From the NCBI GenBank assembly GCA_038227875.1, contig JBBRPR010000077.1:1-37979 (forward strand): 37,979 nucleotides of DNA. The letters are read 5' to 3'. Of this stretch, positions 1 through 26,781 are shown in pieces (position 1 is the stretch's first letter; each line of letters starts with the position of its first letter). The notes under the pieces are model-generated. The model was given only the letters and a program-made list of their open reading frames with translations, did no database searches and was not told where the DNA came from. Both the position numbers and the translations under genes were made by a program. The stretch is from Planctomycetota bacterium (lineage in GTDB: Bacteria; Planctomycetota; SZUA-567; H5-PLA8).

Positions 1-139
1 CAAAACTCCGCTGCCGTAACCTCTCCCATGTGGCGTATCCTTTCTGCCCCGCTGTGGGGGCTTTGGTGTTCCTTTGACAGATCACCAAGGATACGCCGCA
101 CTTTTCCTCCCGCCCAATCCACAAGATTTGACAATACCC

Positions 140-595
140 CTAGAAATAGTACGGCCAGCCGTAATAGATCTGAGTGCCGTGTTCATCCTGAGCCGACAGG
201 AAATGAAATGGGGAGGGAAAACAATTCAGGAAGAGAACCAACCCGCACGCCAGCGTAATCACGATCAGGGTAGCTAAGTGTACTTGCCAAAATCCCCGTT
301 GGTGCGGCTCGTCGACTGCGTATCGGGACCCTTCAGCAACCTCTCGCTTTCGAATAATTTGCTCGAGTGCCAGCGCCGTAATACCAATCACAATGACGTC
401 AAGCATGATGCATACAAGCGGATTCGAAGGCGGATGCTCGTAGGCAATATTGACGAAACCGCTGAAATGCGGCACAAAAAACCAGTTAATGCCACGTAAG
501 TTCATCGGCACCAATAGGCCCCATTCAATTAACAGAATTGCAAGCGTACTAAAATGTATCTGCCAAAACCGCCGCTTAGGCCATTCCCTATTCAC
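140..595 (-). CDS. Membrane protein of the RRxWFQIHLSTL family; two fused units, second possibly truncated
   Basis: GTG at 595 overlaps the upstream TAG (588-590). Unit 1: KRRFWQIHFSTLAILL-TM...TM-LEQIIRKRE. Unit 2: RGFWQVHLATLIVITL-TM...YYGWP, then TAG before the expected second TM. Confidence 0.65.
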   Translation of the reverse strand: MNREWPKRRFWQIHFSTLAILLIEWGLLVPMNLRGINWFFVPHFSGFVNIAYEHPPSNPLVCIMLDVIVIGITALALEQIIRKREVAEGSRYAVDEPHQRGFWQVHLATLIVITLACGLVLFLNCFPSPFHFLSAQDEHGTQIYYGWPYYF

Positions 596-944
596 GCGGC
601 ACCTTGCTTTCATGCGTTCGGGATGAAAGCTTTTGGGATATGAACAATAGTAAAAAGTATGGGGCACACGTAGCGACTAGCCAAAACAATGTATTTAACG
701 CGACATGCAAGAAAAATCGCTCAACTTCAACCTTCCTTTTAATTGTAAGATCAGCATTGGCAACTCCACTATATGTCTGAAAAGGCGTTCCAAAGTAGCA
801 TATCTGTCCTTCATGCCTAATCGGCCGTGCTCCAATTTGTCGTTCGACACACATTTCTGCAGCTAATGAAGCTCCGACCAAAGATAATATAATCAACGTC
901 GAAAGGTTTATTTGAAACCACCGTCGGCGCGGAGACTCAGTCAT
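588..944 (-). CDS. Small two-TM membrane protein, RRxWFQIHLSTL family
   Basis: MTESPRRRWFQINLSTLIILSLVGA; YFGTPF at the YGWP-equivalent position; second TM near the C-terminus; ATGA overlap with the upstream gene. Confidence 0.75.
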   Translation of the reverse strand: MTESPRRRWFQINLSTLIILSLVGASLAAEMCVERQIGARPIRHEGQICYFGTPFQTYSGVANADLTIKRKVEVERFFLHVALNTLFWLVATCAPYFLLLFISQKLSSRTHESKVPRE

Positions 945-1123
945 CGGCGCTTTACCTCGCGACGGCGGGCGGCCCGAAGGCCTTTCCGAGTAATGTAAAT
1001 CTTTTTGGGTTTATATACTTCCAGTTGCTCAACCAGGACGCAGTTCGTCTCCCACAATTTTTCAACAATGCGTTCAAGTTCCTTGATTCTCTTCCGCAAT
1101 GTGTTGATTTCTGACTGTTTCAT
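941..1123 (-). CDS. Small basic coiled-coil hypothetical protein
   Basis: 60-aa ORF coupled by ATGA overlaps at both ends; heptad pattern INTLRKRIKELERIVEKL; ends ARRREVKRR like its neighbours. Confidence 0.6.
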   Translation of the reverse strand: MKQSEINTLRKRIKELERIVEKLWETNCVLVEQLEVYKPKKIYITRKGLRAARRREVKRR

Positions 1124-1389
1124 GGCCTGCGGCCCTCGCAGCCGCGGCGGATCAGCAACTCACAGCCGACAACAAAGAGTATCAAGCAGCCGCCCTGAAA
1201 CAGCGCCAGCCTGAGAGTTTCGTTTTGCGCGTAACGTTGCCAATTTCGCCTGTGCTGCCCTTCAGGATCACGCGAAATTTCCCGATAGTAGCGCAGGTCC
1301 GCATAAATCATTCCGCCCGCAATTAACGCTGCGATAAGCAGGGTCGAAAGATGAAGTTGGAACGGAGGCTGCTTCGGTGTGTCGCTCAT
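1120..1389 (-). CDS. Small two-TM membrane protein, RRxWFQIHLSTL family
   Basis: KQPPFQLHLSTLLIAALIAGG...TM...CELLIRRGCEGRRP; ATGA overlaps at both ends. Confidence 0.75.
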   Translation of the reverse strand: MSDTPKQPPFQLHLSTLLIAALIAGGMIYADLRYYREISRDPEGQHRRNWQRYAQNETLRLALFQGGCLILFVVGCELLIRRGCEGRRP

Positions 1390-1748
1390 CGCTTGCAGCC
1401 CTCGCGGCGGCGGAGGAGGGATTCGGTGGCATATGCAACTGCAAAGAGAGTCAGAGCGAGAGCCCCGATGTTTTCAAACAGCATGAAATAATTCAATAAG
1501 TAAACATCTGCTCCAATCGTGAACATCTGCGTCGGCCACCCTATAATAAAGTTGATCGTTAATTTCCCATCCGGAAAGAACGTCAGCATTTTGCTGCTCG
1601 GGAATCCTGCCTCAAAAATATCTATGCGAGATTGTTCAATCCTCCGTTGATGGATGTTGGCGAGAATGAATCCTCCCGCCGCAATCATCATCAGCACTGC
1701 CGTCAGCAGATGGAACCTGAACCACGAGCGCCTGGGGCTGGAGGTCAT
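1386..1748 (-). CDS. Small two-TM membrane protein, RRxWFQIHLSTL family
   Basis: PRRSWFRFHLLTAVLMMIAAGGFILAN...GWP...TM...ESLLRRREGCKR; ATGA overlaps at both ends. Confidence 0.75.
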   Translation of the reverse strand: MTSSPRRSWFRFHLLTAVLMMIAAGGFILANIHQRRIEQSRIDIFEAGFPSSKMLTFFPDGKLTINFIIGWPTQMFTIGADVYLLNYFMLFENIGALALTLFAVAYATESLLRRREGCKR

Positions 1749-2650
1749 GGCCTGTGGAGCTCGTTCGCGTCCTGATACGCGTCGATCATTACGGGAATCG
1801 CACCGTCGCCAATACTGGTTAGGCCTTTAATGGCCGGAATATAATCCAGAGTAATCGCAGCGGTCTTAGTCTTGAGGTCCATCGCCATGATTTGTGCCGC
1901 ATCAGCGGCCTCGGCACAGGAGGGATCGATCATTGCCAAGGCATACGCCGCAGCGCTCGAAACGAGATGCGCAAGCCCCTTGCGCTGCTCATCATTGATA
2001 GTCTTTTCGAATTTAAGGAAGGGAATGATGACAGGAACGGCATCCTTCGCGTCCGGACCAATATTGCCGAGCGTTTGAATTGCTTCGGACAATTCCATGG
2101 ATTCAAAATCGGCAACGGAAAGCAATGCGATGATCGCCGGAACGGCATCCTTTGCCTTGGGTCCCATCATTGATAACGCTTCCAGTGCTTTTCTACGCGT
2201 AAGTACATCAGATCCACTGGCAAGTGTACCTGCCAGCCCCTGCACAGTTTTTGGAAGGTCACAATTGATAATATGCAGTCCATCGCGGCCAATCAAGAAG
2301 TCGCTCGAATCTGGATTTCTAAGCGCGGCGACGAGCGCCGGAATCGCCTTTTTTCCTAAGTGTGTCAACGCTTCGGCCGCCGCCAACCGTACCTGCACGT
2401 CGGAGTCACGCAGTAGTCGGATCAGTTGGGGAGCGGCAGGCTCTGCCGTGGATGCATTGAGCGATTTAATGGCTTGCATGCGAACGACTGCATCACTGCT
2501 TGAGAACGCAGAAGCGGGTGCGTTCTCTGGTTTGTCTACATCGTGGCGGCGCAACACTGCCACGATAAATAACAATCCCACCCCTGCGAAAATCGCAATT
2601 GCAGTCTTCAAGGTTACCTGACCAACCCATTTCTGTTTCTTTTCGACCAT
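1745..2650 (-). CDS. Membrane-anchored HEAT/PBS-lyase-like repeat protein, possibly C-terminally truncated
   Basis: N-terminal TM (TAIAIFAGVGLLFIVAVL); repeats LIRLLRDSDVQVRLAAAEAL, MGPKAKDAVPAII, IGPDAKDAVPVII. ATG 2650 chosen because it lies 7 nt after TGGTACAAT. Confidence 0.8.
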   Translation of the reverse strand: MVEKKQKWVGQVTLKTAIAIFAGVGLLFIVAVLRRHDVDKPENAPASAFSSSDAVVRMQAIKSLNASTAEPAAPQLIRLLRDSDVQVRLAAAEALTHLGKKAIPALVAALRNPDSSDFLIGRDGLHIINCDLPKTVQGLAGTLASGSDVLTRRKALEALSMMGPKAKDAVPAIIALLSVADFESMELSEAIQTLGNIGPDAKDAVPVIIPFLKFEKTINDEQRKGLAHLVSSAAAYALAMIDPSCAEAADAAQIMAMDLKTKTAAITLDYIPAIKGLTSIGDGAIPVMIDAYQDANELHRP

Positions 2651-2657
2651 GCGCAGG

Positions 2658-2666
2658 ATTGTACCA
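2658..2666 (-). promoter_or_regulatory. Extended -10 (TGnTACAAT), probable leaderless promoter for the HEAT gene and downstream array
   Basis: Minus strand reads TGG TACAAT CCTGCGC ATG; no Shine-Dalgarno sequence. Confidence 0.5.
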
Positions 2667-2710
2667 CCTCCCACACCTCCGGCTATCTTTTCCCAGCCCT
2701 AGCGCCGCCA

Positions 2711-2761
2711 CCGCCTCCAGCATTCGCCCGCATTCATGCTAGAATGCGGCCATGCGCCTGT
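2711..2761. repeat. 51-bp exact direct repeat, copy 1 (part of a ~110-bp diverged duplication)
   Basis: CCGCCTCCAGCATTCGCCCGCATTCATGCTAGAATGCGGCCATGCGCCTGT is identical to 3413-3463; imperfect similarity extends left to ~2655. Confidence 0.95.
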
Positions 2762-2811
2762 CGCCCGTTCAGCAGACCAAGTTATCCCAACTTCCGGGTC
2801 GATGTCTAAAT

Positions 2812-3348
2812 TCATGACAGGACGTTTGGACGGAGCAGCGGCAGGTATTTTTCACGACCATGCCGTTGAACAAATTCGACGTAACTTGCATCGCAGAGTG
2901 CTGGATGACCGGGCACGGCATAGGGCGATGCCGATTCGATGAGTTTACATGCGGCAACGGGTTCGATGCCGCAGGCGACAAAGTAGAGCGACAGGATTGT
3001 CGGAGATCGGTTTATACCGGCGTGGCAGTGTACGAAGATTTTGCTTCCTTCCAGCATGAGTGATTGATGAATGGCGTCCAGACAATCGAGCAGCACGGGC
3101 TTTGGGATTAGCCTGCCGTCCACGATTGGCTTCCAGACGATTCCCGAAAATCCCATCTGCTTGAATAGCTCGGCGTCCAAATAGGGTAGGTCAAAATTGA
3201 AAAGATGCGTGACCCCACCTGCTCGAAGCAACCGGCAATCCGTCTCATCGGGATAGCCGCCCTGAGCGATGGCCCGCGTGATCCAGTAGATGCCGTTTTC
3301 CTCGAACGTCTTGCGAGTCGGAGGCATTGAATTTTCATCGTCGTCCAT
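2812..3348 (-). CDS. Dual-specificity/tyrosine phosphatase family protein
   Basis: Catalytic loop IFVHCHAGINRS (HCxxGxxR) and acid-loop-like WKPIVDG; start placed at ATG 3348. Confidence 0.85.
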   Translation of the reverse strand: MDDDENSMPPTRKTFEENGIYWITRAIAQGGYPDETDCRLLRAGGVTHLFNFDLPYLDAELFKQMGFSGIVWKPIVDGRLIPKPVLLDCLDAIHQSLMLEGSKIFVHCHAGINRSPTILSLYFVACGIEPVAACKLIESASPYAVPGHPALCDASYVEFVQRHGREKYLPLLRPNVLS

Positions 3349-3412
3349 GATCCGCCGTTCTACCTCCCTTCCGCTACTTCGGCCATCTATTCCCGGCCAT
3401 CGCGTCCAGCCG

Positions 3413-3463
3413 CCGCCTCCAGCATTCGCCCGCATTCATGCTAGAATGCGGCCATGCGCCTGT
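3413..3463. repeat. 51-bp exact direct repeat, copy 2
   Basis: Identical to 2711-2761 (offset 702 bp); contains inverted repeat CCGCATTC-N6-GAATGCGG and the start codon of the FGE-domain gene. Confidence 0.95.
3439..3447 (+). promoter_or_regulatory. Extended -10 (TGnTAGAAT), probable leaderless promoter of the FGE-domain gene
   Basis: TGC TAGAAT GCGGCC ATG (ATG 3454, 6 nt downstream); no Shine-Dalgarno sequence. Confidence 0.5.
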
Positions 3464-4494
3464 TGCCGCTCATCGTCATCGTGCTGGCCGGATCGCTGGC
3501 CGCGTCTGAGCCTGCACCCGCCTATCCGCTTTGGGACGGCGTGGAGTCCGTGGCCGACTACGCCAAGAAAGTCAATCTGCCGCCTACGAAGACGCTGGAC
3601 CTCGGCAACGGCGTGAAACTCGAACTGCTGCTGATCCCGGCTGGGAAGTTTGTCATGGGGACGCCGGAGCACGAAAAGCCTGTGATCGGACAATCGATGA
3701 CGGGGATCAGCGGTGGCATCCTTCTTCTCGTGGTGGCGGTCTGGTTGATCCGCGCCCGGCGTAACCGGAAGCGGCCTCAGTTCTCAATGGGGTTGATGCT
3801 AGTGATGACGTTTGTGGCGGCGATTGGCGTCTGGGGCGGCGTGCGTTGGAACGATGCCGTGAAACACCCGGACGATTTTCCAGCCGAACATCCGGCGCAC
3901 CCGGTGACGATGACCCAGCCATTCTATATGGGGAAGTACGATGTAACGCAGGAACAGTACCAAGCCGTGATCGGGACGAATCCCAGCCATTTCAAAGGCC
4001 AGGACAACCCGGTCGAGACGGTTTCATGGGATGATGCGCAGGCGTTCTGCAATAAGGTGACTGAGCAAACAAAAGCTGGCGTTCGATTGCCGACCGAAGC
4101 GGAGTGGGAGTATGCGTGCCGAGCGGGTACTACAACGGAATTCTATTCCGGCGACTTGGAGTCTGATTTGGATCGCGTGGCGTGGTATGTAGCGAACAGC
4201 AAGGGCACAACTCATCCGGTTGGGCAGAAGGAATCCAATAAATTTGTGCTGTACGACATGCACGGCAACGTGTGGCAATGGTGTCAGGACTGGTACGGTG
4301 AAGATTACTACTCCAAAGCTCCAGCTGAAAATCCGCAAGGCGCGGATCATAGTGCCTCGCGTTTGTTGCGCGGCGGTTCGTGGAAGTTCGGTCCCATGAT
4401 CTGTCGGTCGGCTCGCCGCCTCAGGCGCGCTCCGGACTACCGCTACGATGTCATTGGTTTCCGGGTGGTGGTGCCTGCGTTCAGGACGCCCTGA
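3454..4494 (+). CDS. Exported FGE-sulfatase (SUMF1/CLec-fold) domain protein with inserted TM hairpin; candidate DGR target
   Basis: Signal peptide; motifs IPAGKFVMG, PVETVSWDDA, RLPTEAEWEYACRAG, LYDMHGNVWQWCQD, RGGSW...GFRVV; two-TM insert after FVMGTPE. Confidence 0.9.
   Translation: MRLLPLIVIVLAGSLAASEPAPAYPLWDGVESVADYAKKVNLPPTKTLDLGNGVKLELLLIPAGKFVMGTPEHEKPVIGQSMTGISGGILLLVVAVWLIRARRNRKRPQFSMGLMLVMTFVAAIGVWGGVRWNDAVKHPDDFPAEHPAHPVTMTQPFYMGKYDVTQEQYQAVIGTNPSHFKGQDNPVETVSWDDAQAFCNKVTEQTKAGVRLPTEAEWEYACRAGTTTEFYSGDLESDLDRVAWYVANSKGTTHPVGQKESNKFVLYDMHGNVWQWCQDWYGEDYYSKAPAENPQGADHSASRLLRGGSWKFGPMICRSARRLRRAPDYRYDVIGFRVVVPAFRTP
4360..4494 (+). repeat. Candidate DGR variable repeat VR1
   Basis: Aligns with 4869-5006; scaffold codons are identical while intervening codons differ mostly at positions 1-2. 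Confidence 0.55.
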
Positions 4495-4496
4495 CC

Positions 4497-5006
4497 ATGC
4501 GCAACCCCTCGCCCATTCACATTCGCGTTTCGCTACTCGTCGTACTCACGACAGCCTGCTCAATCGCCCACTGCGCCGAGTCCCAATACCCGCTCTGGGA
4601 CAACCACGAATCCATCGCTGACTACGCCAAACGCGTCAACCTCCCGCCGACGAAGACGCTGGAACTGGGCGACAACGTGAAGCTGGTTGCCTGGTATGGC
4701 GGGAACAGTAAGAACACATCGCATCCTGCTGGTCAGAAGGAGGCGAATGTATTTGGGCTTTACGACATGCACGGCAACGTGTGGCAATGGTGTCAAGATT
4801 GGTTCGATAGTGACTACTACTCCAAGTCACCGGTCGAAAATCCGCAAGGCCCGGATCATGGTGCTTCCCGTTTGTTGCGTGGCGGTTCGTGGGGCGACAT
4901 CCCCTTGGCCTGTCGGTCGGCTTTTCGCTTCAGGTGCGGTATGGGGCAACGCTACTACATCTTCGGTTTCCGGGTGGTGGTGGTGCCTGCGTTCAGGACG
5001 CCTTGA
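4497..5006 (+). CDS. Internally deleted paralog of the FGE-domain gene (signal peptide, N-cap and C-terminal third)
   Basis: YPLWDNHESIADYAKRVNLPPTKTLELGDNVKL is joined in frame to VAWYGGNS; the equivalent of residues 57-241 of the upstream paralog is absent. Confidence 0.75.
   Translation: MRNPSPIHIRVSLLVVLTTACSIAHCAESQYPLWDNHESIADYAKRVNLPPTKTLELGDNVKLVAWYGGNSKNTSHPAGQKEANVFGLYDMHGNVWQWCQDWFDSDYYSKSPVENPQGPDHGASRLLRGGSWGDIPLACRSAFRFRCGMGQRYYIFGFRVVVVPAFRTP
4869..5006 (+). repeat. Candidate DGR variable repeat VR2
   Basis: See VR1. The 3' tail GGTTTCCGGGTGGTG(GTG)nCCTGCGTTCAGGACGCCYTGACC is nearly identical in both genes. Confidence 0.55.
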
Positions 5007-5026
5007 CCGCCCTCCCCCAATCCATC

Positions 5027-5055
5027 CTTAGCGCCCCTTGCGTCTTTGCGAGAAA
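5027..5055. repeat. Short CTTTGCGT-type tandem repeat
   Basis: CTTAGCGCC CCTTGCGT CTTTGCG AGA; related to 30269-30296. Confidence 0.5.
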
Positions 5056-5325
5056 AACAAAAACCCCTGCACGCAACAGCATCACAAAGTGCGCCTCATG
5101 CATATCCTGTATTATAAAATCTTTTTTACTAATTTTAAATAAATCACTTGACTTTTGCGTTCAATGACCGCTTATATAGTATAGGAAATTATGCGATGCT
5201 TCTCTTCATACCGAATATGTGCGCGAAACGGCACCGCCATTACCGACTTCTCGCCGGACTTGAATTTGAAACCGCAAGAGCGCCCCGCACGCCCCCAGCG
5301 CCCTGAAAAGGAGACCCCCAACGAT

Positions 5326-5353
5326 GTAACATTTTGTAACATTCCGTAACATT
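5326..5353. promoter_or_regulatory. Three phased GTAACATT direct repeats (10-bp period), putative protein-binding site
   Basis: GTAACATT at 5326, 5336 and 5346, upstream of asd. Confidence 0.55.
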
Positions 5354-5502
5354 GCACCTGGGGCGGGATCCCGCGGGTCGCATACCCCACTCAATCCGCA
5401 ATCCAAAAGCCCCCAGTTGAATTCCACCCATTTCCCGATAACGTGGCCAGACTCTAAACGGGCTCTGTGAAGCTCAAGGATCAAGGAAGGGAGTAGACAG
5501 TC

Positions 5503-6597
5503 ATGGCGTCTCAGGCAAGACGGCGCGTCGCGGTCGTTGGCGCGACAGGCGTGGCCGGTCAACAGTTTCTCGTGTCCCTCAAATCGCATCCCTGGTTCGA
5601 AGTCAAGCGGCTCGCCGCTTCCGAACGCAGCGCGGGTAAGAAATTCCGCGACGCCATCAAGGATTCCTCCTCCGGCGCCACGCGGTGGTTCTGCGATGCC
5701 CCCTGCCCTCCGGAAGTTCTCGACATCACCGTCGAAAACGCCGAGAAGCTGATTCTCGACGACATCGACCTGGTCTTCACGGCCATCGAAAGCGATGCGG
5801 CGAAAATCGTCGAGCCCCTCTACGCGGCCCGCGTGCCGGTGATCTCCACGGCCAGCGCCTTCCGCTACGAACCCGACGTCCCCGTCTTTCTGCCCGGCGT
5901 GAACATCGACCACGCGGCGCTGATCCCCGTGCAGCAGAAGAAGCGCGGCTGGAAAGGCTTCGTCACTCCTGGCCCCAACTGCACCACCGTCGGTCTCGTC
6001 TTTACCTTGAAGCCGCTCTACGACCGCTTCGGCATCAACAGCGTGATCATGACCAGCATGCAGGCCGTCAGCGGAGCCGGTCGCAGCCCGGGTGTGCTCA
6101 GCTACGACATTCTCGACAACATCGTGCCGTACATCCCGAAGGAAGAAGAGAAGGTTCAGACCGAGACGCAGAAGATTCTCGGCGCGCTCAAAGACAACAC
6201 GATTATTCCCGCGCCGTTCAACGTCTCCTGCACCTGCACGCGCGTGAACGTGATCGACGGCCACACCGAATGCGTGTACGTCAGCTTGAAGAAGCCGGCG
6301 ACCGCCGATGAAATCAAGCAGGCGTGGCGCGATGGCTACAAGGAATTCCTGCAGCTGGGACTGCCGAGCGCTCCGCCGGAACTGACGCACTACACGGAAG
6401 AACCCTTCCGCCCGCAGCCGCGTCTGGACCGCGACATGCACGACGGCATGGCCACGGTGATCGGCCGCCTGCGCACCGACGGCGTTTTGCAGAACGGTTT
6501 CAAGTACGTGCTGCTGAGCCACAACACCAAGATGGGCGCCGCGAAGGGCGCGGTCTTGACCGCCGAATATTTGATTAAGCGCGGCGTGATTGCATAA
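5503..6597 (+). CDS. asd: Aspartate-semialdehyde dehydrogenase (archaeal/fungal-type)
   Basis: VAVVGATGVAGQQF, HPWFE, LAASERSAGKK, GPNCTT (catalytic Cys), QAVSGAG, DNIVPYI, DGH, SHNT.GAA; GGAAGGGAG upstream. Confidence 0.93.
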   Translation: MASQARRRVAVVGATGVAGQQFLVSLKSHPWFEVKRLAASERSAGKKFRDAIKDSSSGATRWFCDAPCPPEVLDITVENAEKLILDDIDLVFTAIESDAAKIVEPLYAARVPVISTASAFRYEPDVPVFLPGVNIDHAALIPVQQKKRGWKGFVTPGPNCTTVGLVFTLKPLYDRFGINSVIMTSMQAVSGAGRSPGVLSYDILDNIVPYIPKEEEKVQTETQKILGALKDNTIIPAPFNVSCTCTRVNVIDGHTECVYVSLKKPATADEIKQAWRDGYKEFLQLGLPSAPPELTHYTEEPFRPQPRLDRDMHDGMATVIGRLRTDGVLQNGFKYVLLSHNTKMGAAKGAVLTAEYLIKRGVIA

Positions 6598-9594: not shown

Positions 9595-9625
9595 AAAAGC
9601 GCTTCGCCGACGGCGAAGCGCTTTT
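9595..9625. terminator. Bidirectional intrinsic terminator
   Basis: AAAAGCGCTTCGCC-GAC-GGCGAAGCGCTTTT, a perfect stem between convergent genes. Confidence 0.8.
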
Positions 9626-9628
9626 AAT

Positions 9629-9670
9629 TGACCGATGAAAAATGACCCATGCCCGATGACCAATGACTCC
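9629..9670. repeat. Solo arm of the TGACCAA-heptamer element
   Basis: TGACCGA TGAAAAA TGACCCA TGCCCGA TGACCAA TGACTCC; same unit order as 12451-12492 and 26688-26729. Confidence 0.85.
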
Positions 9671-9672
9671 GT

Positions 9673-12234
9673 TCAGCCCCACGTAATCAAGCTGGGGATG
9701 AACTGCGAGATCAGGTTCTTGTTCTTCGGCAGCACCCGCACCTCATAGCCAAAGCGTCCCGACTGATCGCACGGCAGGATCCCTTCGTACGTGTAGACGT
9801 TGGGTGCTGAGCCGTTGCCGGTGCAGTTGAGCGTCAGGGCGGTGCCGGTGGTCACGGCGCCGAGGTCGGAGACCGGGCCCGTGTAGGCCTGGACGTCCAC
9901 CGAATCCGGGCTGACCGGCCCGAGATGCACGAACGCCTTGACGTTCATGCGATCGCCGACGGCCAGGCCTTCGGAACGGTCGGATTGAACATTTTCGACG
10001 CGGATCTGAGCCCAGCGCTGATAGAGGCTCATCTTCCAGTCCCACATGTCCTTCGCGCCTTTGAAATTATCGGCGTTGAGCGCCTGCCAGGCCTCGCCGG
10101 CGGGGAAGTATTCCTTCTCGTAGTATTCGCGGACCATGCGATGCGTGCTGAACGATCCCGCCGCGGTGACCATCGCCCGCTTCATGCGCCGCACCCATTC
10201 ACGGGGCAAACCTTCGGAGGTCCGGTCGTAGAAGAGCGGTACGATCTGTTTTTCGAGCAGGTCGTAGAGCGCGCGGCTTTCCACGTCGTCCTGGTATTCC
10301 AGATCGGTGTACTCTTCGCCGCGGCCGATGGCCCAGCCGTTCTGTCCGTCGTAGCCTTCGCACCACCAGCCGTCGAGGATCGAGCAGTTCAGCACGCCGT
10401 TGGCGGCGGCCTTCATGCCGGAGGTCCCGGAAGCTTCCAGCGGACGGCGCGGGTTGTTCAGCCAGACGTCGACGCCCTGGACCAGGTAGCGCGCGACAGT
10501 GATGTCGTAGTCTTCCAGGAAGATGATGCGGTTCTTGAAGCGCGAGTCCCGCGACATCTTATAGATCAACTGGATGAACTGCTTGCCGGCGTTGTCCTTC
10601 GGATGCGCCTTTCCGGCATAGAGAATCTGCACCGGGCGGTCGGCATTGGAGAGCAGCGCCGACAGCCGTTCGGGGTCGCGGAAGAGCAGCGTGCCGCGCT
10701 TGTACGTGGCGAAGCGGCGCGCGAAACCGATCGTCAGCGCTTCGGGATCGAGAATGTCTTCGGCCTTCTCGACTTCCTTCGGAGGGGCTCCAGCGCGTGT
10801 GAGCTGATCGCGGACGCGCTGCCGCGACCACGTCACCAGCCGCGAGCGGCGGCGCTGGTGGACGCGCCAGATTTCCGCATCGGGAATCTGGTCCGGTCCC
10901 TTCCAGCTCGGGCCCTGCTGCGCCGCGTCGTACGACCAGCGCTGACCGCAGTAACGCACGAACAGTTCGTTGAGCAGATCGGAGACGTAGGAGCGGATAT
11001 GGCAGCCGTTGGTGATCGACGAGATCGGAACTTCGTGGATCGGCACTTCCGGCCAGACGCCCGCCCACATCTTGCGCGAGACGACGCCGTGCAGTGCCGC
11101 CACGCCGTTGGCCTGCCCGGCGGTGCGCAGCGCCAGGACGGTGAGCGAAAACGTTTCGCTTTCCGCATGCGGATTCTGACGCCCGAGCGCCAGGAACATC
11201 TTGCGGTCGATGCGCAGTCGCGTGTAGAGCTCTCCGAAATACTTGTCCATCAGGTCGATGCCGAAGACTTCGTTGCCCGCCGGCACCGGCGTGTGCGTGG
11301 TGAAGACGTTGCCGGGAATTCCCGCTTCGATGGCCTGGTGGAACGACAGACCCTTTTCGTCCATCAGGATGCGGAAGCGTTCGATCGCCGAAAACGCGGC
11401 GTGGCCTTCGTTCATGTGGACGACTTCAGGTTCGCGGCCCAGCAGGCGCAGCGCGCGCACGCCGCCGACGCCCAGGATCAGTTCCTGCTTGATGCGGTGC
11501 TCATGATCTCCGCCGTAGAGCTGATCGGTGATCACGCGGTCTTCCGGCCGGTTCAGATCGATGCGGGTGTCGAGCAGGTACAGCGGCACGCGGCCGACCT
11601 GGACGCGCCAGATCTGCGCGTACACTTTGCGTCCCGGAAAATCCACGTTGGTGATCAACGGCTTGCCGTCCTTGCCGCGTTCGAGCGTGCAGGGCAGGTT
11701 GTAAAAATCGTTGCCGAACAGGTATTCCTGCTGAAAGCCTTCGTGGTTGAGGTACTGCCGGAAGTAGCCGTTGTGATAGAAAAGTCCGACGCCGACGAGC
11801 GGAATGCCGAGGCCCGACGCGGCTTTCAGATGATCGCCGGCCAGCAGCCCCAGGCCGCCGGAATAGATCGGGAGACATTCGTGAATCCCGAACTCGGCGG
11901 AGAAGTACGCGACGTGGGTCTTCTTCTTGTCCGAGTAGTTTTCCGTATACCAGGTCTTGGCGACCATGTAGGCGTCGAGTTCCTTCTTGACGCGGTCCAT
12001 GTGCGAGAGGAAATCGGCGTCCTTCGCCAGCCCGTTGAGCCGGTCCTGGCTGACGCGGCCGAACATGGCGATCGGATTGTGCGACGACGCTTCCCAGACT
12101 TCCCGGTCGATGCGGACAAACAGATCGCGCGCTTCCTGGTTCCACGTCCACCACAAATTCAACGCGATGTCGCGCAACGAGTTCAGGCGCGTCGGAAACG
12201 ATGGAACAACCGTGTAAGTCCTTACATTGCGCAT
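9673..12234 (-). CDS. glgP: Alpha-glucan (glycogen/starch) phosphorylase
   Basis: NLWWTWN, AYFSAEFG, YSGGLGLLAGDHLK, HMNEGH, FTTHTPVPAG, GFARRFATYKR, EASGTSGMKA (PLP lysine); start placed at MRNVRTY. Confidence 0.95.
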   Translation of the reverse strand: MRNVRTYTVVPSFPTRLNSLRDIALNLWWTWNQEARDLFVRIDREVWEASSHNPIAMFGRVSQDRLNGLAKDADFLSHMDRVKKELDAYMVAKTWYTENYSDKKKTHVAYFSAEFGIHECLPIYSGGLGLLAGDHLKAASGLGIPLVGVGLFYHNGYFRQYLNHEGFQQEYLFGNDFYNLPCTLERGKDGKPLITNVDFPGRKVYAQIWRVQVGRVPLYLLDTRIDLNRPEDRVITDQLYGGDHEHRIKQELILGVGGVRALRLLGREPEVVHMNEGHAAFSAIERFRILMDEKGLSFHQAIEAGIPGNVFTTHTPVPAGNEVFGIDLMDKYFGELYTRLRIDRKMFLALGRQNPHAESETFSLTVLALRTAGQANGVAALHGVVSRKMWAGVWPEVPIHEVPISSITNGCHIRSYVSDLLNELFVRYCGQRWSYDAAQQGPSWKGPDQIPDAEIWRVHQRRRSRLVTWSRQRVRDQLTRAGAPPKEVEKAEDILDPEALTIGFARRFATYKRGTLLFRDPERLSALLSNADRPVQILYAGKAHPKDNAGKQFIQLIYKMSRDSRFKNRIIFLEDYDITVARYLVQGVDVWLNNPRRPLEASGTSGMKAAANGVLNCSILDGWWCEGYDGQNGWAIGRGEEYTDLEYQDDVESRALYDLLEKQIVPLFYDRTSEGLPREWVRRMKRAMVTAAGSFSTHRMVREYYEKEYFPAGEAWQALNADNFKGAKDMWDWKMSLYQRWAQIRVENVQSDRSEGLAVGDRMNVKAFVHLGPVSPDSVDVQAYTGPVSDLGAVTTGTALTLNCTGNGSAPNVYTYEGILPCDQSGRFGYEVRVLPKNKNLISQFIPSLITWG

Positions 12235-12363
12235 GTCCGGTAGGTCCCCAAATTGACAGAGTCGTGTGAATCCCGCGCCCAAGTACGCAAAAACCATGCT
12301 TGGCTTTCAAGGTAGCCAGTACACGTTAAGAGGCGATGACGAAAACGCAAGCCGCGCGAACAG

Positions 12364-12490
12364 AGTCATGGGTCATTGGGCGATGGTCATCGACCATTTT
12401 ACGAGGAGCGTAATGGCAACCCCAAGCGCCTGTCTTCCACTCTGCGTAAATGATAAATGAAAAATGACCGATGCCCAATGACCAACGACT
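12364..12490. mobile_element. MITE-like element with heptamer-built inverted arms, flanked by CAG on both sides
   Basis: Left arm AGTCATGGGTCATTGGGCGATGGTCATCGACCATTTTACG is approximately the reverse complement of right arm CGTAAATGATAAATGAAAAATGACCGATGCCCAATGACCAACGACT. The repeat is directly visible; mobility is inferred. Confidence 0.55.
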
Positions 12491-12543
12491 CAGTTCCCGC
12501 CCCGATTTCTGTGAGCAATGTGATCGAAAATCAAACGCCGCGC

Positions 12544-26495: not shown

Positions 26496-26514
26496 TGTCG
26501 TCCTCGTTTTACAG

Positions 26515-26727
26515 AGTCATTGGTCAGTGGGTATTGGTCATCGGTCATTTTTCATTTACGGGGAGCGGATGGTTGCGCCCGTCCGTAATAACACCCGTAT
26601 CAGGTCTTCGTGAACGACCTGTGAAGAACCGTTGTCCTATTTCGAATCGCATGACCTTTCATGTATCTCAGTCTCCGCGTGCGAAAATGACCAATGAAAA
26701 ATGATCGATGCCCAATGACCAATGACT
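26515..26727. mobile_element. MITE-like element with heptamer-built inverted arms, flanked by CAG on both sides
   Basis: Left arm AGTCATTGGTCAGTGGGTATTGGTCATCGGTCATTTTTCATTTACG; right arm AAATGACCAATGAAAAATGATCGATGCCCAATGACCAATGACT; same family as 12364-12490. Confidence 0.55.
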
Positions 26728-26732
26728 CAGTT

Positions 26733-26781
26733 AAAAACAACTTGGCCCCTCTGATCCCGCGCTAACGGGAGAGGGGCCAAG
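26733..26781 (-). terminator. Intrinsic terminator after rpsI
   Basis: CTTGGCCCCTCT...AGAGGGGCCAAG 12-bp stem followed on the minus strand by TTGTTTTT. Confidence 0.7.

Follow-up and report, generated by a model that had tools for sequence, protein, structure and literature searches.

FGE-type genes at the left end of the contig

The window analyzed here appears to be the whole of contig JBBRPR010000077.1 (37,979 nt; GenBank assembly GCA_038227875.1) from a Planctomycetota bacterium, and near its left end it carries two adjacent genes, ORF1 and ORF2, of the formylglycine-generating enzyme (FGE)-sulfatase type, the 3′ ends of which resemble the variable regions (VRs) of diversity-generating retroelement (DGR) targets. 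In the DGR of Bordetella phage BPP-1, RNA of a template repeat (TR) is subject to adenine mutagenesis by a reverse transcriptase (RT) with Avd, and replacement directed by the initiation of mutagenic homing (IMH) sequence rewrites a C-terminal VR in a C-type-lectin fold (summarized in PMC5758913). From sequence comparison, ORF1 and ORF2 appear to be tandem paralogues of a large Planctomycetota family. The features of the locus, and of one set of repeats farther along the window, are collected in Table 1.

Table 1. Positions of the ORF1–ORF2 features and of the intergenic repeats in the window.
Feature	Position (nt)	Strand	Description
Stub of third family gene	2660..2766	+	~105-nt copy of ORF1 upstream region plus first 15 nt; ATG at 2752
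ORF1	3454..4494	+	Intact, 346 aa, FGE-sulfatase/C-type-lectin fold; candidate DGR target
Signal-like hydrophobic N terminus of ORF1	3454..3510	+	About aa 1–19; Kyte–Doolittle 19-residue window 1.69 at residue 1
Two-helix hydrophobic hairpin in ORF1	3679..3864	+	aa ~76–137, predicted
VR1 block	4360..4496	+	RLLRGGSW...GFRVVVPAFRTP and stop; scaffold near-identity to ORF2 block starts here
Variable patch of VR1	4384..4455	+	16 variable codons between fixed CCC, TGT CGG TCG GCT, CGC, CCG, CGC
IMH-like 3′ tail of VR1	4456..4496	+	GFRVVVPAFRTP, stop codon, then CC
ORF2	4497..5006	+	169 aa; ATG 4497 two bases past ORF1 stop
Deletion junction in ORF2	4683..4688	+	...VKL / VAWY...; ORF1 3622–4176 without counterpart in ORF2
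VR2 block	4869..5008	+	Variable patch 4893–4964; tail 4965–5008 with one extra GTG
~50-nt intergenic repeats	9621–9673, 12354–12399, 12443–12500, 26507–26560, 26680–26735		ATGACC/AATGA-rich

ORF1 matched PF03781 (FGE-sulfatase) in Pfam with an E value of 1.9e-48, and relatives of 345–348 aa covered 97–100% of it at 72–83% identity; in 90% clusters, the ORF1 and ORF2 proteins were each the only member, the cluster entry for the window's own protein giving 37,979 nt as its longest contig. TvpA (2Y3C; E 1.2e-36), a DGR variable protein of Treponema, was the best PDB match of ORF1, with genuine FGEs at about 1e-20, and the alignment to TvpA contained no gaps across the VR. An AlphaFold2 model of ORF1 had a mean predicted local distance difference test (pLDDT) score of 65. 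Because pLDDT was below 50 over residues 280–346, VR included, the model was unusable for the binding face, and the placement of the variable residues on one face is taken from homology to TvpA, not from the structure model. Foldseek searches with this model returned PvdO, TvpA, and FGE at TM-scores of only 0.27–0.44.

The FGE domain of ORF1 is interrupted by the predicted hairpin, with its first strands (aa 56–72) before the insertion and the remainder from aa 143 after it; the Pfam match begins only at aa 143, corresponding to profile position 24. Hydropathy maxima were found at aa 77 and aa 108, and AlphaFold2 placed helices at 76–103 and 112–137, this block having a pLDDT of 81–90 in an otherwise mediocre model. 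The two helices are separated by a basic loop (RARRNRKR), and the segment is kept in the consensus of 56 family members. A weak likeness of the hairpin to the PVV-CTERM sorting domain was seen below threshold (21.3 bits against a cutoff of 27). We met no description of a two-helix membrane hairpin within an FGE domain, although no literature search was aimed at the hairpin. Family members would be exported FGE-type proteins of C-type-lectin fold, held at the membrane via this internal hairpin.

An initial sequence-only reading of the locus had described two genes of FGE/C-type-lectin fold. The fold was borne out by the Pfam and PDB matches, but the second gene turned out not to be full-length. 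A mechanical ORF listing opens ORF2 at GTG 4380, inside ORF1, the real start being the ATG given in Table 1, and its PF03781 match spans only profile positions 154–254 of 255. The protein retains a signal-like N terminus and 33 residues homologous to ORF1 residues 24–56, followed directly by the last ~105 aa, VR included. P0063, a full-length counterpart from a relative (379 aa), aligned on both sides of a 209-residue gap, pointing to ORF2 as an in-frame internal-deletion derivative of a paralogue rather than a second whole gene. The possibility that ORF2 is a conserved short form was ruled out: no database protein spans the junction, and coverage was 89% at best and 51–78% for most matches. 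As to a shared VR ancestry, ORF2 and P0063 match in 6 of the 16 variable columns, a level reached by 4 of 133 comparators (P0063 and three others).

The homology of the upstream stub to ORF1 stops after codon 5, and its frame closes after 21 codons; the stub and the ORF1 upstream region share 59 nt at 97% identity (repeat D5). Between the two copies of the upstream region lies a 207-aa ORF (2812–3435, minus strand) with a sub-threshold match to dual-specificity phosphatases (27.3 bits against a cutoff of 33.5).

Paired variable blocks and the family-wide adenine signature

For a comparison of the two blocks, ORF1 (4177–4494) and ORF2 (4686–5006) were aligned by codon, with scaffold and tail codons counted from 4360 on and with variable columns that had been defined independently from 70 homologues. 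The two genes differ at 38 of 183 nucleotides upstream of the block, at 4 of 87 in scaffold and tail codons, and at 26 of 48 in the 16 variable codons (Fisher p = 0.0005 for scaffold against upstream and p = 1.7e-5 for variable against upstream). The corresponding third-position counts were 20/61, 2/29, and 7/16 (p = 0.008 for scaffold against upstream and p = 0.006 for scaffold against variable), and 19 of the 32 first and second positions of the variable codons differed. Upstream, the differences fall mostly at third positions, as in old paralogues under purifying selection; the pattern in the block is real and unlike ordinary divergence. Beyond one CGC/CGT site, 3 nt of the scaffold differ, an imperfect fit to adenine-only change.

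The peptides and reading frames quoted in the sequence-only reading are present in the sequence as it described them, and the codon table reproduced both the NNY pairs on which it relied (TTC/GAC, ATC/GCC, CTC/TTC, CGC/TGC, GCT/GGT, and GTC/ATC) and those it had found awkward (AAG/GGC, TAC/CAA, and GAC/GGG). The tail through the stop codon, which it had called nearly identical, measured 36/37 with the extra GTG of ORF2 set aside (97%; repeat D11). The run of GTG (Val) codons after GFR numbers three in ORF1 (4465–4473), four in ORF2 (4974–4985), and five in P0063, a small triplet-repeat length polymorphism within the IMH-like tail. Templating of one VR by the other was ruled out: the copies differ at 29 sites over 114 nt, and at only 5–6 of these does the other copy carry A. 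DNA at the ends of the two window VRs folded into a hairpin no better than did shuffled sequences (z −0.4 and −0.9), and two true VR ends were also without significant fold (z −0.2 to −0.9 across all four ends).

The 120 best homologues of ORF1 were then taken (40–83% identity; Planctomycetota/Phycisphaerae wherever named), and nearly all show the conserved ...RLLRGGSW, a variable patch, and the GFRVV..RTP end. The 70 with canonical spacing were used for column analysis, and the other 50, with indels or scaffold changes, were left out. The columns are diagnostic. Four variable columns have narrow residue sets: G19 W18 R17 in column 14, with an implied template codon of AGG; D22 G22 V12 A1 in column 18 (GAC); I33 L12 V11 F4 in column 24 (ATY); and M23 V11 L8 in column 5 (ATG). 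Each of these sets fits a common codon skeleton in which just one adenine position varies. Lys, Glu, Gln, Met, and Trp, five residues that AAY cannot yield, together occupied 20 of 840 positions (2.4%) in the other 12 columns, which are of AAY type, compared with 21.5% in the rest of the proteins. Asn itself was kept at 97 of the 840 positions (hand count).

Divergence in the variable columns was independent of relatedness. Among 59 sequences (1711 pairs), variable-column identity stood at 12–18% in all bands when pairs were grouped by their identity outside these columns, over the range of 50% to 93%; the pair P0003 and P0005, for example, is 92.7% identical outside and 12.5% identical in the variable columns. 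ORF1 shares 3/16 variable columns with P0002, to which it is 85% identical outside the VR, and 2/16 with P0008 (hand count), and its VR therefore looks unrelated to those of its closest homologues, at 82–85% identity. In DNA, a set of 53 canonical VRs taken from 45 related loci had C or T as the third base of AAY-type columns at 566/636 positions (89%), compared with 383/636 in scaffold columns. In a set of 134 proteins with canonical spacing, pooled from the ORF1 and ORF2 searches, the C-terminal end was FRTP in 39 and SRTP in 9.

Two further observations concern VR-like ends elsewhere. The FGE-type proteins of Microcystis that were retrieved (L010–L012, L016, L017, L019, L022, and L032) have VR-like C termini ending GFRVVCGAGRTL, several per locus; these loci contain no RT within 10 kb, and the R-T-(P/L)-stop ending is common to them and the Planctomycetota family. 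In a paralogue at 2927–3118 of L001, a related Planctomycetota locus, the variable patch is precisely absent (...GQARVL/GFRVVV...), as though a deletion had removed everything between the two ends of the TR-homologous block.

DGR cassettes in related loci and the surroundings of ORF1 and ORF2

A scan of genome contigs gave 79 related loci (1.18 Mb), all from other genomes, the best relative being 60% identical. TRs were located in four of these by an adenine-tolerant sliding scan, and the neighboring genes were confirmed by Pfam. L049 has one TR that is adenine-compatible with two VRs at 114/114 positions, with RVT_1 present; the TR of L035 is likewise compatible at 114/114. In L007 the value was 110/114, with the order HRDC–bAvd–RVT_1–TR, and in L031 it was 96/114 with an indel (alignment A1), with the order bAvd–RVT_1–TR. 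A blastn-based screen for adenine bias found L035 and L049 only, the sliding scan being needed for L007 and L031. When three RTs, two Avds, and one HRDC protein were used as tblastn queries, RTs turned up in 3 of the 79 loci and Avd in 4. Two candidate pairs, in L042 and L051, were ruled out as T-biased repeats.

In these relatives, homology between TR and VR extends from the RV(L)RGGSW codons to about the stop codon, the same boundaries as those of the window block. The start of VR1 matches that seen in L049, L035, and L031; in L031 and L049 the homology reaches the stop codon, and in L031 it covers the codons equivalent to the VR1 tail. Within the FGE domain, the VR sits at the same position in the window ORFs as in L007, L031, L035, and L049, and the PF03781 match extends to the last residues of both window ORFs. 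In L013 (3639–4234), a 369-aa Planctomycetota protein with the architecture of ORF1, hairpin included, is followed by bAvd (E 3.1e-20) and then, at the contig end, by an IS66 TnpB gene of opposite orientation in place of an RT; an insertion sequence may here have interrupted a DGR cassette. The DGR-type variable 3′ ends claimed in the sequence-only reading are thus backed by the adenine column signatures, by saturation, by the TR/RT/Avd cassettes of relatives, and by the avd gene after the L013 target.

Its third claim, that neither template nor RT is present locally, held over the whole contig by Pfam, tblastn, blastn, and the sliding scan. No RT or Avd domain was detected by Pfam among the 57 contig ORFs, and the six tblastn queries matched the contig at E ≤ 0.006 in the VRs alone, through the TR-encoded end of the L049 RT ORF. 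A degenerate TR elsewhere on the contig was ruled out by blastn at word size 7 and by the adenine-tolerant scan, the best non-self values of 75–79/114 being noise. Searches for similar DNA in phage or plasmid records gave no match, and the window contains no Rfam families or tRNAs. ORF1 and ORF2, which start 3.4 kb from the left contig end, belong to a 5.4-kb flank with reduced GC content, and a linked DGR cassette beyond that end is possible.

The left flank (1–5400) has a GC content of 42–57%, compared with 58–64% in the housekeeping region to its right, and closes in an AT-rich stretch (5040–5200); it has the look of an accessory island truncated where the contig ends. On its minus strand, the gene for a 309-aa HEAT-repeat protein (1745–2674) is followed downstream by four small ORFs (588–1748; 118, 60, 89, and 120 aa) whose stop and start codons overlap, and the small ORFs had no match in Pfam, NCBIfam, or PADLOC. 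The ~50-nt intergenic repeats of Table 1 occur in direct and inverted orientation at 77–91% identity and resemble repetitive extragenic palindromic (REP) sequences or miniature inverted-repeat transposable elements (MITEs). Upstream of the aspartate-semialdehyde dehydrogenase gene (5503–6597), GTAACATT is found three times in tandem at ~5325–5350, and this triple motif could be an operator.

Origin of the variable regions and relation to known systems

Taken together, the column signatures, saturation, and scaffold identity make it very probable that both VRs were written by DGR adenine mutagenesis. By analogy with characterized DGRs, a TR elsewhere in the genome would be transcribed, a DGR RT with Avd would make cDNA from it with misincorporation at template adenines, and the cDNA would replace the VR, guided by the IMH-like end GGT TTC CGG GTG GTG GTG CCT GCG TTC AGG ACG CC. 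The outcome would be a scaffold of unchanging codons (W, P, CRSA, R, R, P, R, GFRVV...) enclosing some 16 codons that are drawn anew from AAY, ATG, AGG, GAC, and ATY template codons, and these 16 would form a ligand-binding face. The arrangement we infer is one in which TR and RT lie off the contig and act in trans, ORF1 being the functional target and ORF2 a decaying copy with VR and tail. That a cognate DGR is still present off-contig, and able to act in trans at least on ORF1, is a view toward which we lean only slightly.

Several results weigh against this reading. No TR, RT, Avd, or HRDC is present anywhere on the 37,979-nt contig, no cognate TR for the window VRs was found in the 1.18 Mb of the 79 related loci (89–90/114 at best), and a DGR part lies within 10 kb in only 5 of those 79. 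Between VR1 and VR2 there are 8 third-position differences, 7 of them in variable codons, so that the two cannot both have been newly copied from a single template of AAY type. Other VR pairs with a confirmed or candidate common TR show 0 (L049), 0 (L045), 2 (L026), 2 (L059), 3 (L033), and 3 (L022) third-position differences; L049, the confirmed pair, has 8, 10, and 0 differences at the three codon positions, and L045, a candidate, has 10, 8, and 0. The caveat entered in the sequence-only reading, that third-position differences do not fit one recent template, was accordingly upheld. VR1 also carries AAG, in a column where the 70 homologues show no other Lys, and VR2 carries CAA (Gln), GGG, and an ATG at an otherwise fixed Pro column (Pro in 67 of 70). 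Finally, ORF2 is truncated and the third gene is reduced to a stub, so that the array is eroding.

The misfitting codons are not outlandish. In AAY-type columns of other VRs, codons ending in G or A make up 70/636 (11%), so one per VR is not unusual, and four of the seven third-position differences in variable codons are C/T. Third-position differences are enriched in the variable codons and nearly absent from the scaffold codons; candidate explanations are third-position adenines in the template, the use of two templates, or a relaxation of selection as ORF2 decays.

The VRs may alternatively be orphaned relics, once DGR-written in a lineage that has since lost the element or had it disabled, with only ordinary mutation now acting and the array decaying. 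We regard this as a possible account, if not the favored one. It gains from a contig devoid of DGR parts, from third-position differences in 7 of 16 variable codons where confirmed same-TR pairs have none, from the off-pattern AAG, CAA, and GGG codons and the Pro-to-Met scaffold change in ORF2, and from the internal deletion of ORF2 beside a third gene surviving as a 5′ stub. L013 offers a parallel, its avd gene standing beside a same-family target and followed by IS66 TnpB on the other strand instead of an RT, as do Treponema isolates from which the core DGR is missing and which keep “leftover” targets, and the truncated or over-mutated “suspicious” targets, described in the portion of Nimkulrat et al. 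available to us (PMC4891356). However, the synonymous sites of scaffold and tail are far closer than those in the rest of the genes (2/29 against 20/61), which implies that templating took place well after duplication. ORF1, moreover, is intact, with a VR unlike those of homologues 82–85% identical to it. The off-pattern codons lose weight as evidence of decay when G- or A-ending codons stand at 11% in VRs of the wider family and when the same available text of PMC4891356 reports lysine-codon hypervariation for the Treponema DGR.

A history without any DGR, in which ordinary paralogues have a binding loop under diversifying selection and flanks kept alike by gene conversion or codon preference, is improbable. 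The RGGSW...RSA.R....P..R....GFR scaffold is indeed found across the FGE superfamily, enzymes and PvdO included, and 74 of the 79 related loci have no DGR part within 10 kb; however, selection leaves unexplained the R/G/W, D/G/V/A, and I/L/V/F columns, each with one skeleton and a single variable adenine, as well as the near absence of Lys, Glu, Gln, Met, and Trp and a variable-column identity that ignores relatedness, and gene conversion would have to skip 16 interleaved codons yet fix 29 others. That the proteins are genuine formylglycine-generating or related oxidase enzymes, with functionally irrelevant C-terminal differences, is scarcely credible: Pfam and NCBIfam do assign both to the FGE-sulfatase superfamily, with sub-threshold matches to PvdO, GldK, and EgtB, but these lie far below the NCBIfam cutoffs (111 bits against 500, 86.5 against 350, and 63 against 360, respectively), TvpA scores ~16 orders of magnitude ahead of any FGE, and the LCHDSYC of Streptomyces FGE (6MUJ/2Q17), whose Cys pair we take to be the catalytic copper ligands, aligns to KFGPMIC of ORF1, with a 3-residue enzyme insertion absent and the first Cys of CxxxxC falling on a column that is hypervariable in the family and has Phe in ORF1 and Asp in ORF2, for which reason a catalytic reading fails. 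SUMF1/FGE and PvdO thus share the Pfam family and the fold scaffold with the window proteins and differ from them in the Cys column and in the sub-cutoff scores.

Among known systems, the DGR of Treponema denticola offers a close parallel. TvpA is, like ORF1, a small exported protein consisting of the FGE domain only, with an ungapped VR alignment, and the accessible parts of two papers (PMC4891356 and PMC5758913) place it with six remote paralogues, several targets per genome and most of them far from the RT. Treponema differs in belonging to another phylum, in having a lipoprotein signal where the ORF1 family has a hairpin within the FGE domain, and in having a mapped TR, whereas the window is known from target genes alone. 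STAND-, caspase-, and kinase-FGE targets of Verrucomicrobiota, Planctomycetota, cyanobacteria, and other multicellular bacteria have the same VR position and spacing, according to the part of Doré et al. that was available (PMC10907252). Their TRs are of the same type (...SWNNN...), as seen in L049, L035, L007, and L031, and the kinase-FGE target of L031 ends in RTP like the window family. These targets are large cytoplasmic multidomain sensors of 715–1286 aa with an adjacent DGR, in contrast to the short, exported, FGE-only window proteins with no DGR nearby. For the BPP-1 DGR and its target Mtd, the mechanism would by analogy be the same as for the window VRs; there, however, the cassette acts in cis and is phage-borne, and Mtd is not of FGE type, whereas the window VRs are without a significant downstream hairpin.

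The arrangement itself is already known, and the window is a new example of it. In the survey of Wu et al., of which part was available (PMC5758913), FGE-sulfatase C-type-lectin domains are the largest class of DGR target (71 of 372), non-adjacent targets are given for 45 of the 372 DGRs, with targets more than 100 kb away in ten, and the Treponema DGR is credited with seven non-adjacent targets. The corresponding excerpt of Nimkulrat et al. (PMC4891356) lists seven FGE-type targets for that DGR, trans diversification is inferred in Thiohalocapsa in the text seen of Doré et al. (PMC10907252), and, in the portion seen of Roux et al. 2021 (PMC8144416), RT-centered DGR surveys are said to overlook remote targets.

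The understanding of how DGRs work is left unchanged by this finding. It does indicate that a DGR target can be recognized from its gene family alone, by three features: single-adenine columns, saturation regardless of relatedness, and synonymous-site identity of the scaffold between paralogues. The results also point to a family of exported binders of FGE type in Planctomycetota, sizeable and unusual in its membrane hairpin. More speculatively, and with considerable doubt on our part, Planctomycetota may hold a very large undescribed repertoire of hairpin-anchored FGE/C-type-lectin receptors, encoded in short tandem arrays, with rewriting in trans by DGRs to which they are hardly ever linked. 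If so, the third-position scatter would reflect two co-resident templates or third-position template adenines (Lys-type codons), and the contig would show a live target beside a truncated copy that bears a VR and a stub of such an array.

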